DNA from: Bythopirellula sp.
GTDB taxonomy: Bacteria > Planctomycetota > Planctomycetia > Pirellulales > Lacipirellulaceae
NCBI GenBank assembly: GCA_965216565.1
Contig: OZ244170.1
Coordinates: 1,888,001 to 1,952,000 of the forward strand
Length of the DNA stretch: 64,000 bases
Direction of reading: 5' to 3'
The position numbers and the translations under genes are program-made. The first letter of the stretch is position 1. Every line of letters begins with the position of its first letter. The notes beneath the pieces were generated by a model, which worked only from the letters and a program-made list of their open reading frames with translations, ran no database searches and had not been told where the DNA came from. This document shows positions 20,791 through 27,558 of this stretch, in pieces.

Positions 20791-21222
20791 CTAATCTAAT
20801 GCGTCAAATGGAATAGACAACGCCGAAGCGCCACCGGCCGTTACCGAGATCGCCAGCAACCCACCCTCGGGATAGTCCCCTGCGAACATGGGCTGCAGAT
20901 AGGGAAAGACCGTCGGCAGTTGTGCCGCACAGTCCTGCCAAGCAAATGCTTGACTGTAGACGGTGGTATGTTCCTCGTCCGTCTCGCCATCCGCGACATT
21001 CTCAGCGATTGCGTTGTCGACCTCTTCCCCCAACCAACCCCGCGCAATTTCTCCGCCGATTTCGTCCTCGCAATCGAGCAAGATCACCACGGGTTGATCG
21101 ACGCCCTCCGACTTGGCGGATTGGTACACCTCGCCCACCAAATGCAAACTATCTTCGAGCAGTTGTTGCTGGGCATCGAGGGCATCGGCCGATTCGTCAG
21201 AATGATCTGGGGGAGGGGACAT
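20791..21222 (-). CDS. Acidic hypothetical protein
   Basis: 143-aa ORF 15 bp upstream of the dehydrogenase, same strand. Confidence 0.7.
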   Translation of the reverse strand: MSPPPDHSDESADALDAQQQLLEDSLHLVGEVYQSAKSEGVDQPVVILLDCEDEIGGEIARGWLGEEVDNAIAENVADGETDEEHTTVYSQAFAWQDCAAQLPTVFPYLQPMFAGDYPEGGLLAISVTAGGASALSIPFDALD

Positions 21223-21312: not shown

Positions 21313-21353
21313 AAAAAAGAACGGCCTGGCTGCCAATTCGGCAACCAGGCCGT
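21313..21353 (-). terminator. Intrinsic terminator
   Basis: 14-bp stem ACGGCCTGGTTGCC / GGCAGCCAGGCCGT followed by TCTTTTTT on the minus strand. Confidence 0.8.
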
Positions 21354-21600
21354 GTTTGATGTGCTTTGAGAACAGGCTACTGTACCAAGGTAATGCAGCA
21401 GCGGGATCTCAGAAGCAGGTGGTGGGTGGTGCCACTAAGTGTGACAACCCGCCGGTCGTCAACGGCTACCACCCCACTGATGTTTATGATATTCGTTCAA
21501 CGAACCACCTCCTTCCTTACAATGTCTTGGCAGCAACAGCGTCAATCATCAGAGGACGCCTGCGGCCGAATTGCCCGTCGTGCTGCGTTCGCACGACCCT
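21313..21600 (-). ncRNA. Candidate small structured RNA containing a 13-codon ORF (21459..21500)
   Basis: TATAAT at 21608-21613, extended SD GGAAGGAGGTGGTTC, TTG-MNEYHKHQWGGSR-TGA, nested hairpins, own terminator. Confidence 0.55.
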
Positions 21601-21789
21601 TGCCAACATTATAGTCGGCAATCATCCCAAGAGCCCGCACCTGTTTTGTGCCAATGCACGTCCGGACCTGGGACAACTGCAGAAAAGAGCCTAATTACCG
21701 CGATAAGGTTCGCAAAGTTTATTTGCATTTTTTCATTTTTTTTGGGTGCCGAAGGGTAAAATCTGGAACGCTCTTCGGCAGGAATCAAA

Positions 21790-23187
21790 ATGAATCGCCG
21801 CCAACTCCAAAAACTCGGCATCCCACCTCACTGCGCCCAAATAGCCGTCGACGCCGTGCGAACCGCCGCTTCCGAAGGCCTCGGCATGGGGCTCAAGGGA
21901 AAGCGGATGCGGCAGTTGATCTCTCAAGTGGCGGCCAGTCCGGAAACCTTCCGCGGCGATCCAGCTTGGGGTGCATTGGCCCAGGCGCTCGTGGAAAACG
22001 AGCAGATCGTCCCCCACGAGCCCATCAAATACCGCACCTGGGGGGAAGACATTGATCCCGCCGCCCACGTGCAAATGCGCGATGCCTGCCATGTGCCGAA
22101 TGCCGTGGGAGCAGCCCTCATGCCAGACGCCCATGTCGGCTATGGCCTGCCCATTGGCGGAGTGCTCGCCTGCCAGGGGGCGGTCATTCCGTATGCCGTG
22201 GGTGTCGATATCGCCTGTCGGATGAAACTCTCCGTGCTCGACATGCCGGTCGAAAATCTAGAGACCAAACGCGAACCGTTTCGAGTTGCGCTCGAAAAAG
22301 GAACTCGCTTCGGAGTAGGCTGCCAACACAAGCCGGCCCAATCGCACGAGGTGATGGATGACAATTGGAACGTCACCCGCATCACCCGCGAGAAAAAAGA
22401 CACTGCCTGGAAGCAACTCGGCACCTCAGGTTCAGGAAACCACTTCGTCGAATTCGGCACGCTCACTCTCAACCACCGAGACGACGAACTCGACCTCGAC
22501 GCCGGCCAGTACGTTGCGCTACTCAGCCACAGCGGAAGCCGCGGCGTAGGGGCAGCCGTTTGCAGCACCTATAGCCAAATCGCCCAGCGACAACTTCCTA
22601 AACGATACGAAAAACTGGGCCGACTCGCTTGGCTTGATCTCAAGAGCGAAGCCGGCCAGGAATATTGGGAAGCGATGAACCTGATGGGACGTTACGCCGC
22701 GGCCAACCATGCCGTGATCCATCGGCTAGTCTCCCAACAGTTGGGGGCGCACATCATCAGCGGCGTGGAAAACCATCACAACTTTGCCTGGCTCGAAAAG
22801 CATCGGGGCGAGGAAGTTGTCGTCCACCGCAAGGGAGCGACCCCCGCGGGGCCGGGCGTGCTGGGCGTCATCCCGGGTTCGATGGCCGACCCCGCATTTG
22901 TGGTGCGAGGATTAGGCCTGCCGGAAAGCTTCGACTCTGCCTCGCACGGCGCAGGCCGACGCATGTCGCGCCGGCAGGCCAAGGACACCTTTCGCATTTC
23001 CCACGTCCGCAAAGACTTGGCCGAGCGAGGCATCGAAGTTCTCGCCGCCGGCAGCGACGAAGTCCCGGGCGTGTATAAGGACATTCGCAGCGTGATGGCC
23101 GCCCAACAAGATCTCGTAGAAGTCGTCGCCCAATTCGATCCCCGCATCGTCAAAATGTGCGGCGATGGCAGCAAACCAGAAGATTGA
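21790..23187 (+). CDS. rtcB: RNA-splicing ligase RtcB
   Basis: MPDAHVGYGLPIGG, VGVDIAC, GSGNHFVE, HSGSRG, NHHN, HRKGAT, PGSM, SHGAGR, YKDI. Confidence 0.96.
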   Translation: MNRRQLQKLGIPPHCAQIAVDAVRTAASEGLGMGLKGKRMRQLISQVAASPETFRGDPAWGALAQALVENEQIVPHEPIKYRTWGEDIDPAAHVQMRDACHVPNAVGAALMPDAHVGYGLPIGGVLACQGAVIPYAVGVDIACRMKLSVLDMPVENLETKREPFRVALEKGTRFGVGCQHKPAQSHEVMDDNWNVTRITREKKDTAWKQLGTSGSGNHFVEFGTLTLNHRDDELDLDAGQYVALLSHSGSRGVGAAVCSTYSQIAQRQLPKRYEKLGRLAWLDLKSEAGQEYWEAMNLMGRYAAANHAVIHRLVSQQLGAHIISGVENHHNFAWLEKHRGEEVVVHRKGATPAGPGVLGVIPGSMADPAFVVRGLGLPESFDSASHGAGRRMSRRQAKDTFRISHVRKDLAERGIEVLAAGSDEVPGVYKDIRSVMAAQQDLVEVVAQFDPRIVKMCGDGSKPED

Positions 23188-23906: not shown

Positions 23907-24106
23907 GGGCACAAAGCCCACAGGCTTAACGTCTGCTGCGTGTGAATTCTCAGCGGCCACGGTTTTGTGGGTGTCAGCAAAACGTTCGAAAAACCGTTGA
24001 ATTGCCAAATGATCGCTGTACATTAGGGACTAGGGTTCGCGGTCGCTTGGCCAGGATTGAAGGATTCGACCTCTTTAAGCTACTCATAGACTTCAGGAGC
24101 ACGCTA

Positions 24107-25144
24107 ATGAACTTCGACAATGCGTTCAAATCAAAGACCTTGCGGTCATTCCTCTTTGTCATTGTTGCAGCAATCTTTGCCACGCTGTCAACTTATTGCT
24201 TTGCTCAAGAAGTAAGCCCCACCACAGACCGACCCGCACTTTACGACGCAGAGGCGGGCGTCTATTACCAAGCAGCCGGAACGCGTCGTCACGATGTTGC
24301 TGACGCAGTCTATACGGCTCTTTCAACGCAATCGCAGTACGATCCCGTAGGCGATATTATCTATTCCGACCCCGGCGGTACCTTTCGTTGTTCTGGAACC
24401 TTGATTTCGGACAGCCACGTCCTCACTGCCGCCCATTGTATGGACGGCGGAGACGCCCAAGGCCCCGCCACTCCAAGTGCTATTCAATTCACGCTCCCAA
24501 CGGTTGGTACTCTGACGGGCGACGTCAGCAAGGTGACTGTCAATCCAAACTGGACAGGCAACCTAACCAACGGCAATGACATTGCCATTTTCGAGTTGAC
24601 TGCGCCTGTGGGAAGCGTAACACCCGCCCAACGCTACGATGCGGGTACACTGGGTAGCGAAGGAGGCAGTGTTGCCACAAGCGTTGGCTATGGTCGTACG
24701 GGGACAGGCCTCACAGGCGATACTCTCGGCTCGGGAACGCGTCGAGCTGGTGATAATGTGTTGGACGCACTCGGGAGCGTCTTCGGTTGGTCTACGGACA
24801 TTCTACTAGTCGATTTCGACGAGCCTGGCGACCCCAACGAGTCTGTCTTCGGCAGCAATGTCCCCCTAGCCAACGAGTACAACATTGCCCCGGGAGACTC
24901 GGGTGGAGGAGCTTTTACCAACGTCAGTGGCACACACTACCTGACTGGCGTCCACTCTTTGATCTGGGCCATCGACGGCAATACCAACTCCGATTACGGC
25001 GACGGTGGGGGATTCATTAGGGTTTCCGATCACAATGCCTGGATCAACTCCGTCGTGCCCGAACCCACTTCCGCGGGTTTGTGTATGCTGGGAATGCTAT
25101 TGCTGGCAGCACGTCGTCCTAGATCGGGCGTGACACAGGTTTAG
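24107..25144 (+). CDS. Trypsin-like (S1) serine protease with PEP-CTERM
   Basis: CSGTLIS..VLTAAHC, DIAI, GDSGG triad; VPEP + TM + RR. Confidence 0.92.
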   Translation: MNFDNAFKSKTLRSFLFVIVAAIFATLSTYCFAQEVSPTTDRPALYDAEAGVYYQAAGTRRHDVADAVYTALSTQSQYDPVGDIIYSDPGGTFRCSGTLISDSHVLTAAHCMDGGDAQGPATPSAIQFTLPTVGTLTGDVSKVTVNPNWTGNLTNGNDIAIFELTAPVGSVTPAQRYDAGTLGSEGGSVATSVGYGRTGTGLTGDTLGSGTRRAGDNVLDALGSVFGWSTDILLVDFDEPGDPNESVFGSNVPLANEYNIAPGDSGGGAFTNVSGTHYLTGVHSLIWAIDGNTNSDYGDGGGFIRVSDHNAWINSVVPEPTSAGLCMLGMLLLAARRPRSGVTQV

Positions 25145-25211
25145 CCACAATCTACGATACAAGTAGTTGGTTCTGAGATCGGCTTGGGGCCAACTTTTCA
25201 CATTTTTGTGG

Positions 25212-25529
25212 ATGAATGCTATGCGTCTATTATGGATTCGTTCGGCTGCGACAACGCTACTGACGCTTGCCTTGTTTGGCTCATGCAATTCTCTCTGCCA
25301 GGCCTTTGAGACGCTGATTGGTGCTGAGCCTCCAATCTATAGCGATTTCGTCGAACTTCCTGACGGCAGCACCATGAAAGTGGACTACCGAGTTTCCGGC
25401 GAATTGGTCGCTCCGCCCGCCGACCAATTGGGATCCGTTGGCAAGGTCATTCCCGAGCCCAACACAGCAATGCTGATCTTGGCTGGCTCTGGTCTAGGCA
25501 TGCTCAGTGTGCGGAGAATCAGTCGATAG
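25212..25529 (+). CDS. Very small PEP-CTERM protein
   Basis: Signal peptide, ~50-aa mature part, IPEPNTAMLILAG..RR. Confidence 0.75.
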   Translation: MNAMRLLWIRSAATTLLTLALFGSCNSLCQAFETLIGAEPPIYSDFVELPDGSTMKVDYRVSGELVAPPADQLGSVGKVIPEPNTAMLILAGSGLGMLSVRRISR

Positions 25530-25572
25530 GCGGCAGCCGCCATCTCTCTGAACGTTATTGGAGGCGACAGCC

Positions 25573-25806
25573 ATGCCCTCGAAACGCTCTACCACTCCGC
25601 TGGACCGCTTCACCGTTTTCGTAGGCATTGCAGTCCCGCTGACACTGCTGCTGGGAGTCTCGGTTTACGTTGCACACTTAGTTTCCAGTGGAGCATTCAC
25701 GTCATCTCGACCATCCGTCCATTTGATAGTCGCAGCCTGGGTAGCGTTCGCCATGCTTTGCGCGAGCTTCGTCGTAGCGATGAAGCGAGGCCGCAAGCAA
25801 GCATAA
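25573..25806 (+). CDS. Small two-TM membrane protein
   Basis: SD GGAGG, two hydrophobic helices, basic tail. Confidence 0.6.
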   Translation: MPSKRSTTPLDRFTVFVGIAVPLTLLLGVSVYVAHLVSSGAFTSSRPSVHLIVAAWVAFAMLCASFVVAMKRGRKQA

Positions 25807-25916
25807 AGTAGCTATTGGCCCAAATTCCCATTCCCCGCCACGTTGGCGGTGTCTGCCAAGACACTGCGAAACGATTCTGGTACTGCGGAGCACAAACGCA
25901 AAAACGCCCAAAGCAA

Positions 25917-26025
25917 ATAGCCACGAAAATCACAAAGACGCACAAAAAACCTCAACAAATCAATTTTTGTGTCTTCTTGTGTTTCTTGTGGCTATGTCTC
26001 TCTCGGCTATGTTTCTTGTGGCTAT
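25917..26025. repeat. Palindromic intergenic repeat with tandem duplication of its right arm
   Basis: atagccacgaaaatcacaaagacgcacaaaaa ... tttttgtgtcttcttgtgtttcttgtggctat, then tgtttcttgtggctatg again. Confidence 0.65.
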
Positions 26026-26043
26026 GACTATAAAGGACTTCCC

Positions 26044-26337
26044 CTAGTCAACATTGCGCCGTTTCGAAGAAAGCAAGCCCAAGACCGCCGCGAACAGGGC
26101 GCCGCCGATGATCGACCAAACGATGGGAAACGACTCGTCGCCGACTTGGATGGAAAAGATCTCCGGCAATCCCGTGGCTCTGGCCAGCCACACGCCCAGC
26201 AGGGATCCGATAAATCCCAACGCGATGGCAGTAAGACATCCACCCCGGGAAAAACCAGCCAGCGACTGAGCAATCGCCCCGCACACTCCGGCGATTAGAA
26301 GTAGTAACAGCAATTCCATCATAGCCATGAATTTCAC
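26044..26337 (-). CDS. GlsB/YeaQ/YmgE (transglycosylase-associated) membrane protein
   Basis: LIAGVCGAIA...IALGFIGSLLG...SIIGGAL pattern. Confidence 0.88.
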   Translation of the reverse strand: MKFMAMMELLLLLLIAGVCGAIAQSLAGFSRGGCLTAIALGFIGSLLGVWLARATGLPEIFSIQVGDESFPIVWSIIGGALFAAVLGLLSSKRRNVD

Positions 26338-26550
26338 TCTACAAAATCGAGATGGTTAATCAACCAGAACCGTATCGTTTCAACCCAATTTTGTAACGGA
26401 TGTTGACTATCGTCAATCGCGGTCTCACGACTCAGACGGTGCCACTACACAATAATTGCTCCAAAATTGCTCCAAGGATCTTGCAAAGAAAAGTTTCGAA
26501 GTACGAGCAACGCCATAAAGCCTAATCTCAGTTTGCTCAACTCAGGTCGC

Positions 26551-27558
26551 TCAAGAATCGCATTGCATTCTTGAAACCCACCACGAGGTATTGCGTCTTG
26601 ACAAGGTAAGACTGAGTGCAGCTAGCGCAAGTCCGCAGGTTGCTGGCTCAGGGATACTCGATACCCGAAAACCTATGTGGGAGAATCCTTGATTCCATCG
26701 ATCTAGACCTCGCTGTGTCGAACGCAGACTACTCAGGTCATTATCCCAGTCTCCGCCGCGGGCTTCATGGTCTCCATTCGTCGAGTCATTCACGCGATCA
26801 AATTCAGTCTCTAACCGTTCCCAAATATTCCCACCTTGGCCCCTAGTTCCATAGGGACTTGGCAAACCAACATTCATGACATCGTTGGGCAGTGGATTAT
26901 GATCCCCATCGTCAAACACGACATCGAACGAGGGATCGCCCGGAGAGTCGATTCCATCGGGGACATTGTCGCTCCCCGCAGGGAAATCGTAGTAGACATT
27001 GTGTACAGGATCGTAGTAAGCAGCTTTGTACCACTCGTCGAGGCTTGGTAGGAAATACTTTGCCAGTCGATTTCTGTAGAGATTGTCTGGACTGTAGCCT
27101 GGGTCGCCTGGTTGCCACAACTGAAAATCACCATTGGGGTCGATGTTGTAGGCTGGTGGATTGCCTGAATTGCTATTTAGCCAATTGACAAATTTTATGG
27201 AGTGGAGCCAAGTCATTCCAGCAGCTGGCTTGTTGGGTCCACGGATGGCTCTGGGAATGTTCAAAGGATTCCCGTCAGCCGCAGATTGGGCATTTGCATT
27301 GACAATCATCTGCTCAGACACTTCGTAGGTGCTGATCCGATAGTTATAGGCGACCGAACCCACTCTGTTTGGACTGCCTGTTGTGTCGGCGGGATTACCA
27401 GGATTGCCGATGCTGGTGAACTCAATACTGAATGAGGTATCGGGGTCGGAACCGAAATCGTCAGCATGGCCAGCTGAGTCTGGAAGAATCACCAAAGCGA
27501 AGAGCACGCAACTGCAGAGAAGCTTGCTAAACAACGGAAGACCTCCCATGAGAACCAA
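26551..27558 (-). CDS. FGE-sulfatase (SUMF1-like) domain PEP-CTERM protein
   Basis: ISTYEVS, LPSLDEWYKAAY, SPYGTRGQGGNIWE, RGGDW, HIGFRV, then IPEP. Confidence 0.88.
   Translation of the reverse strand: MVLMGGLPLFSKLLCSCVLFALVILPDSAGHADDFGSDPDTSFSIEFTSIGNPGNPADTTGSPNRVGSVAYNYRISTYEVSEQMIVNANAQSAADGNPLNIPRAIRGPNKPAAGMTWLHSIKFVNWLNSNSGNPPAYNIDPNGDFQLWQPGDPGYSPDNLYRNRLAKYFLPSLDEWYKAAYYDPVHNVYYDFPAGSDNVPDGIDSPGDPSFDVVFDDGDHNPLPNDVMNVGLPSPYGTRGQGGNIWERLETEFDRVNDSTNGDHEARGGDWDNDLSSLRSTQRGLDRWNQGFSHIGFRVSSIPEPATCGLALAALSLTLSRRNTSWWVSRMQCDS

Follow-up and report, generated by a model that had tools for sequence, protein, structure and literature searches.

What is encoded by the compact transcription unit that lies on the minus strand, divergent from rtcB, in this Bythopirellula genome, and what could so small a unit do with so long a ribosome-binding sequence? 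The preliminary description of the window (the whole stretch of 64,000 nt that was analysed) had proposed a small transcript with its own -10 box, long Shine-Dalgarno (SD) sequence, 13-codon ORF, terminator and the strand CCACCTGCTTC; our sequence check found all of its features on the minus strand, exactly where they had been claimed. Distribution, predicted fold and SD pairing together support a self-contained, conserved and structured predicted transcript that would engage the ribosome. On these comparisons it is proposed that the unit is a gene of its own, specifying a folded RNA of ~290 nt and present as a single copy in the genomes of most related bacteria. The features on which the following analysis draws are listed here in the direction of predicted transcription, with the divergent neighbour last.

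21608..21613, minus strand: -10 box TATAAT, with a predicted start site near 21601.
21577..21597, minus strand: hairpin P1, whose loop CGC takes part in long-range contact 1.
21529..21567, minus strand: long hairpin P2, whose apical loop CTGATG (21547-21552) is predicted to pair with the interior of the ORF (contact 2).
21502..21517, minus strand: SD1, the extended SD (15-mer at 21502-21516), with 16 possible pairs to the genome's own 16S tail.
21459..21500, minus strand: 13-codon ORF with TTG start and TGA stop; start, stop and frame are kept, the peptide is not.
21477..21482, minus strand: CATCAG, the partner of the P2 loop, which departs from the genus consensus by compensatory changes.
21469..21475, minus strand: second SD-like motif, GAGGTGG in most relatives, and 5' strand of the core helix P4.
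21443..21460, minus strand: hairpin P5, directly after the stop, whose loop GCG faces that of P1 in contact 1.
21422..21431, minus strand: 3' strand of the core helix P4, placed by folding and class alignment.
21412..21422, minus strand: anti-SD1 strand CCACCTGCTTC, family-specific.
21362..21377, minus strand: single-stranded motif preceding the terminator, genus-conserved.
21313..21353, minus strand: intrinsic terminator with 15 pairs.
21790..23187, plus strand: rtcB, the divergent neighbour, outside the element (Pfam PF01139, E 6.6e-89).

The -10 box is TATAAT at 19 of 20 genus loci and TACAAT at the remaining one. A consensus scan called no sigma-70 promoter on the minus strand, a properly spaced consensus -35 is absent upstream of TATAAT in this genome, and the hexamer TTGCCG, which had been taken for the -35 of the unit, is rejected as such because it sits just 2 nt ahead of the -10 box. 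The predicted fold of the 290-nt strand has a free energy of -129 kcal/mol (z = -6.5), and none of 200 shuffled sequences was equally stable. The conserved single-stranded motif at 21362-21377 (minus strand) comes after a variable hairpin, and no pairing partner was established for it. Two plus-strand ORFs (152 and 82 aa) overlap the unit; the genus alignment contains many indels across both. A promoter-like site on the plus strand at 21588-21615 (9/12 matches, with 0.7 such sites expected by chance) faces rtcB and overlaps the -10 box of the RNA; if this site is real, the RNA promoter and the rtcB-facing promoter would compete.

By DNA search the element turns up in 21 of the 24 relatives from the genus and gives a single match in this genome. 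At the level of the order, a pattern consisting of a long SD and a start codon matched 68 of 151 genomes versus 17 with a reversed control, and the same anatomy was seen in 24 of the 30 loci fetched with it. Chance matches (6/30 loci in one pattern search, 7/30 in another) were removed before the class analyses, and a covariance model was built on 24 members, which match it by construction. This model has exactly one match per genome in 120 of 150 class genomes and none in families f19 (0/5) and f22 (0/3); named loci from Planctomycetota and Pirellulaceae reach 57-134 bits with it. Neither this single-copy distribution across the class nor the kinship with Ms_IGR-5 that is set out below had been noticed in the preliminary description. 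Beyond the class, an all-bacteria genome scan with the pattern SD, start codon and GAGGTGG returned at least 120 loci. Among the matches listed (80 named) these are mostly from Actinomycetota, the other taxa being Planctomycetota, Acidobacteriota, Thermodesulfobacteriota, Myxococcota, Latescibacterota and Fibrobacteraceae. An ORF of no more than 20 codons that contains the motif is present in 107 of the 111 distinct SD matches among those listed, and a few of these 107 cassettes are probably chance matches.

The covariation check that the preliminary description had called for was carried out on two alignments, one of 20 genus sequences and one of 100 class members aligned to the covariance model. 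It supports four helices and, in addition, two long-range loop contacts that the first reading had missed. P1 and the terminator covary in the genus alignment, the latter with 10 of its 13 pairs changed on both sides, and across 99 sequences all seven pairs of P1 are changed on both sides with 98.3% of cells paired; an unbiased mutual-information scan of the 100 class members recovered P1 and two further signals. The first of these two is P4, in which the second SD-like motif pairs with a 3' CACC strand (U-A in 67 and C-G in 19 of 99), with 5 same-branch changes versus 0.4 expected on a tree that was derived from the RNA itself and in which kin are not independent. The motif is GGCGG in 19 of the 99 members, accompanied by a compensating change in the 3' strand. 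The other signal, contact 1 between the loops of P1 and P5, is C-G in 46, U-A in 41 and U-G in 1 of 99 members, unpaired in 3 and a gap in 8. On the same RNA-derived tree it shows 4-5 same-branch changes, 3-4 of them compensatory, versus 0.2-0.3 expected and 0-1 for unrelated column pairs; it comprises just three pairs, two of them invariant, and most of its variation tracks two clades.

Contact 2 joins a P2 loop of the type CTGG to CCAG in the ORF. In this genome CTGATG faces CATCAG, a double compensatory change (pairs 64-135 and 65-134, both sides). A test anchored on the core (53 of 59 members) gave 36 distinct combinations, of which 27 are Watson-Crick at position +1 (C-G, A-T and T-A; permutation p 0.0003) and 27 of 36 at position -1 (p 0.005); kinship is ignored in these p values and in the one that follows. 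In an independent set the 4-pair core is present in most of the 32 members (of 43) that could be anchored, and position +1 is not significant there (10/23, p 0.06). Overall 86.5% of the cells of contact 2 are paired, with broken contacts in L002, L242, L250 and L263; in L002 (positions 326-520), the closest relative, the P2 loop is mismatched to the ORF. Tree counts for this contact (6 same-branch changes versus 1.4 expected, not all compensatory) are unreliable, since the P2 loop of the window was misaligned by the model. The structure as a whole has 92.4% of 2662 cells paired, a value reached in none of 500 shuffles and compared with 25-50% in slid controls; an outer closing stem (columns 31-35 x 225-229; 84% paired) was rejected as poorly supported. 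The alignments place bases of the ORF within the core helix P4 and within contact 2, and contact 1 next to the stop. The 5' domain with its two covariation-backed loop contacts and the class-wide single-copy distribution are new here.

How the ORF is accommodated in this fold bears directly on what the RNA might do. Relatives preserve the start, the stop and the length of the ORF, mostly 10-15 codons, and the core GAGGTGG is translated as EV, RGG or RW according to clade, that is, in all three frames. The stop begins 9, 8 or 7 nt past the hexamer, depending on the frame; this genome has GGGGTGG as its second motif and its stop 8 nt past the hexamer. In the all-bacteria set (n = 107, among the matches listed) the distance is 9 nt in 92 cases, 8 nt in 7 and elsewhere in 8; it is 7-8 nt in 19 of 20 loci of the order set, 7-9 nt in 16 of 21 of the phylum set, and 7-8 nt in 39 of 48 new class members, the other nine being unparsed or mis-parsed by the rule. 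The genomic background for such a stop distance is 2-3% per frame, and the stop position formed part of no search pattern. Within the genus the stop lies at 11 nt, and not at 8, in 10 of the 14 members that could be parsed. This frame-independent stop position is also new here.

We come now to the reading that we favour, to which we would give an even chance: the element would be a translated, tertiary-folded stand-alone sRNA that works via ribosome occupancy and not via its peptide, toggling between a folded and a ribosome-bound state. It builds on elements that the comparisons bring out, namely a promoter box, a terminator, a near-maximal SD, a conserved start and stop, P1, P4, P5 and the two loop contacts. 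Protection from decay is another possible explanation of a strong SD with a short ORF, and the most serious competitor, unlikely but far from negligible, is an ordinary trans-acting or protein-binding folded sRNA whose SD and mini-ORF load ribosomes merely for decay shielding or folding, as in STAB-SD elements. The rich conserved tertiary structure would suit such an RNA, as would the second SD-like motif, which covaries as a helix and not as a 16S partner, and the weak GTG/TTG starts that prevail in the class; protection alone, however, needs neither a stop fixed within 1-2 nt across three frames nor ORF bases in the tertiary core. In STAB-SD stabilisers and uORF attenuator leaders, a ribosome at a strong SD alters RNA stability or folding in cis on an mRNA, whereas the element stands alone, ends in its own terminator and is followed by no fixed gene.

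A micropeptide gene, in which the product of 10-15 residues or the nascent chain is the effector, had been among the earlier suggestions and appears improbable. Start, stop and length are indeed tightly kept, and peptides are similar within clades, such as the REVAAR-type in Actinomycetota; against this, 19 of the 21 distinct codon variants found in 20 genus members are non-synonymous and 2 synonymous, and the three frames yield unrelated peptides (EV, RW, RGG). The further idea of UGA read-through fared no better: the extensions differ in all respects, three of them have zero length, and relatives use TAG, TGA or TAA. Type I toxin mRNAs encode a conserved hydrophobic peptide; this identity was rejected for the element, whose ORFs encode 10-15 polar residues in three frames.

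The claim that the long SD is complementary to the whole 16S 3' end was checked against the genome's real 16S and borne out. With the 3' end as predicted from the 16S gene located in this genome, SD1 can form an uninterrupted run of 16 pairs (3 G-U) with an energy of -26.4 kcal/mol; of the 543 seed-filtered sites in the genome, only the one antisense to the 16S gene is stronger. Use of all 16 pairs by a ribosome is probably not to be expected; pairing of the last 9-13 bases alone gives -15.5 to -20.6 kcal/mol. The segment AAGGAGGTGGTT of SD1 is invariant at all 20 genus loci, and the median pairing energy of SD1 across 97 class members is -25.8 kcal/mol. The second SD-like motif can pair with the 16S tail at -10 to -13 kcal/mol, and pairing at -8 kcal/mol or better is predicted in 73 of 100 class members. 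In this genome SD1 stands 5 nt from the start codon, and the second motif likewise 5 nt from the last sense codon. If the RNA were an untranslated decoy for the anti-SD, trapping 30S subunits and with an incidental ORF, it would profit from a pairing potential far above that of a normal SD, and very strong SDs slow escape from initiation. This reading is nonetheless very improbable in the face of a conserved in-frame stop and of a normally spaced start codon, which 178 of 184 SD matches possess (among the matches listed, and partly imposed by the search patterns).

Re-sequestration of the SD by CCACCTGCTT, as suggested in the preliminary description, is plausible from folding, in which SD1 is predicted to be 58-77% unpaired as long as the RNA measures no more than 180 nt, and 11% once it has reached 190 nt. 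It is, however, family-specific: the anti-SD1 strand is found in 21 of 100 aligned members, all in or close to family f1, and the SD1/anti-SD1 helix is invariant in the genus alignment and gives no covariation. Since SD1 is predicted to be open to 180 nt and closed from 190 nt, ribosome loading would be mainly co-transcriptional in the family of the window element.

For the translated, occupancy-dependent sRNA that we favour, we propose the following course of events. The nascent RNA would expose SD1 and capture a 30S or 70S ribosome at very high affinity. Translation of the 10-15 codons would then melt contact 2 and helix P4, and termination at the stop, at the foot of P4/P5, would disturb contact 1. 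Under a shortage of ribosomes or of initiation it is the knotted state that the RNA would adopt, in which the 3' strand would additionally close SD1 in the window's family. As translation and folding would be mutually exclusive, the state of the RNA would report or absorb ribosome availability, and an RNA that toggles with it could act as a ribosome sensor or sink. Anchoring of the terminating ribosome by the second motif fits the geometry, yet is weakened by the GGCGG variants, which retain the helix and lose the 16S pairing, and by the 11-nt stop distance of most parsed genus members.

The genomic context gives little reason to tie the RNA to a neighbour. The rtcB gene starts 176 nt from the -10 box of the RNA and lies within about 1.5 kb at 5 of the 20 loci in the genus; in other genera of the family this holds for 4 of 8 loci, and outside the family for none of 49, some of the fetched flanks being cut by contig ends. 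With adjacency patchy in one family and missing beyond it, the proposed link to RtcB and RNA repair finds no support, and the rtcB adjacency looks incidental. E. coli RtcB has reportedly been seen to re-ligate a 16S 3' fragment, a report that is contested. In the RtcB of this genome (21790-23187, plus strand), the product of its only rtcB, about 85 residues precede the family match as an N-terminal extension. Among the 20 genus loci, 8 have a VKOR-thioredoxin gene upstream, 8 have hyp143 and isocitrate dehydrogenase (icd) downstream, and at least 6 have a convergent downstream ORF; given these patchy neighbours and the convergent downstream ORF, the RNA is taken to be independent of both neighbours. 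The hyp143 gene (20791-21222, minus strand), between the RNA and isocitrate dehydrogenase, encodes an acidic protein of 143 aa with 44-54% identity in the family and no Pfam or NCBIfam match. At 23942-27558, between rtcB and the VKOR gene, lie several short genes, which end in what we take to be a PEP-CTERM-like tail; the VKOR gene adjoins the RNA in other genus members, and this suggests that 23942-27558 is a variable insertion region. A ribosome-mediated attenuator leader was rejected as an identity, there being no fixed co-oriented downstream gene and no regulatory codons. A cis-regulator of the downstream gene by attenuation, or an rRNA-repair partner of the divergent rtcB, is the least credible of all the readings: rtcB adjoins the RNA in 9 of 28 family loci, hyp143-icd recurs downstream as stated and the terminator ends about 90 nt ahead of hyp143, but rtcB adjacency is confined to the family, the downstream gene can be convergent, the ORF has no run of one amino acid and the alignment no conserved anti-terminator.

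Whether the element belongs to an already described RNA family was raised at the outset. No Rfam family matches above its cut-off, and what remains is a sub-threshold likeness to Ms_IGR-5 (RF02471), against which the window element scores 20.5 bits (E 0.03; cut-off 45); it is the single match of that model in the genome at E <= 1. An extended SD, a short ORF, the GAGGTGG core, a stop close behind, a 3' CACC strand and a GC-rich intrinsic terminator are common to both, and the 5' GAAGGAGGUGGUC of Ms_IGR-5, followed by a start codon and short ORF, is present in the element. The two differ at the 5' end, where the element has a structured domain of 87 nt (P1, P2) before the SD whereas the Ms_IGR-5 model begins about 8 nt before it. 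The element further has its two loop contacts and the family-specific anti-SD strand, and its kin read the core as QWGG, QRGG or QRW in contrast to EV in Ms_IGR-5. Actinomycete loci from the pattern scan score 85-176 bits with the Ms_IGR-5 model, 6 of the 20 tested passing the cut-off, and intermediates from other phyla score 19-35 bits. The element and RF02471 probably share an ancestor. In the actinomycete loci L085, L089, L093 and L095 the bases after the SD appear, by eye, to be paired with GGAC or GGAT of the ORF, leaving the start codon in a loop; this pairing departs from the Rfam consensus structure.

A second known RNA, CC2171 (RF01867), is a Caulobacter and alphaproteobacterial sRNA whose model gives no match to the window element at E <= 10 (cut-off 75 bits) and 28-29 bits to two planctomycete members. 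The near-maximal SD recurs at the beginning of its consensus, there with a GTG start, and a short ORF and a terminator are common to both; the parallel is new here. The CC2171 ORF is mostly 21-25 codons long, opens with UCUCAU and has its start paired with a 3' strand, whereas the element has 13 codons and another fold. Among 111 distinct metagenome loci with the CC2171 consensus, an ORF of fewer than 30 codons is present in 109 and GAGGT is missing in 77, and the family cut-off is reached by 11 of the 20 loci tested; in 61 genomes of the class of G564 (the source of L161), no CC2171 member is over the cut-off. The alignment with CC2171 covers SD and terminator only, and common descent would be an unproven assumption. 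By the cut-offs the element is outside both RF02471 and RF01867, and in its predicted design it is like them.

Relatives of the element are expressed, as far as the accessible text of the reports goes. IGR-5 of M. smegmatis is ncMSMEG15794c, an actinobacterial sRNA (PMC10454040), it is NAD-capped and called uncharacterised (bioRxiv 2021.12.14.472595), and its homologues are transcribed in Streptomyces (PMC8079986, PMC8780764). CC2171 is Northern-confirmed in Methylorubrum, with no function given in the accessible text (bioRxiv 2022.01.24.477521), and is also mentioned in the available parts of PMC11701678 and PMC5596092. The ribosome-profiling tables in 12 of the 13 supplementary files of PMC4633059 contain no entry for the IGR-5 ORF. 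In the literature searched, mostly without subscription papers and without the original IGR-5 and CC2171 reports, no description of a planctomycete member, of its translation or of its function was found.

Several other identities were considered and set aside. The Rhodopirellula-1 motif (Weinberg 2010; not in Rfam) is multicopy and, as far as its accessible description goes, shares no motif with the single-copy element, and the Rfam matches to SCARNA15 and mir-1490 (E 4-6) are due to chance. Streptomyces scr4389, guessed to be a homologue by locus order, is unconfirmed in the available text of PMC2602773 and PMC8388888. For M. tuberculosis ncRv0810c/ncRv10810c, the accessible portions of the literature gave no tie to IGR-5.

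A wider proposal is possible and, in our view, more doubtful than the reading of the element itself. Ms_IGR-5, CC2171 and the planctomycete form might be united in an ancient, single-copy, housekeeping-like class of ribosome-docking RNAs, an RNA-only device for sensing or storing ribosomes. Such an RNA would hold ribosomes in two places, its maximal SD and its stop codon, the latter by way of a second SD-like motif that keeps initiation distance to the last codon, and its doubly knotted fold would be switched by translation. The point mutations that the loop contacts offer, and the reading proposed for the mycobacterial and Caulobacter relatives, are open to direct tests in genetically tractable hosts. 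Translation of such RNAs is undescribed in the literature searched, and a single-copy RNA conserved over several bacterial phyla that carries one or two Rfam names to which no function is attached is a rare gap among the basic bacterial RNAs. Within this gap the planctomycete form has the richest predicted structure, and its loop contacts, which are backed by covariation, would have to be broken by any ribosome that translates it.
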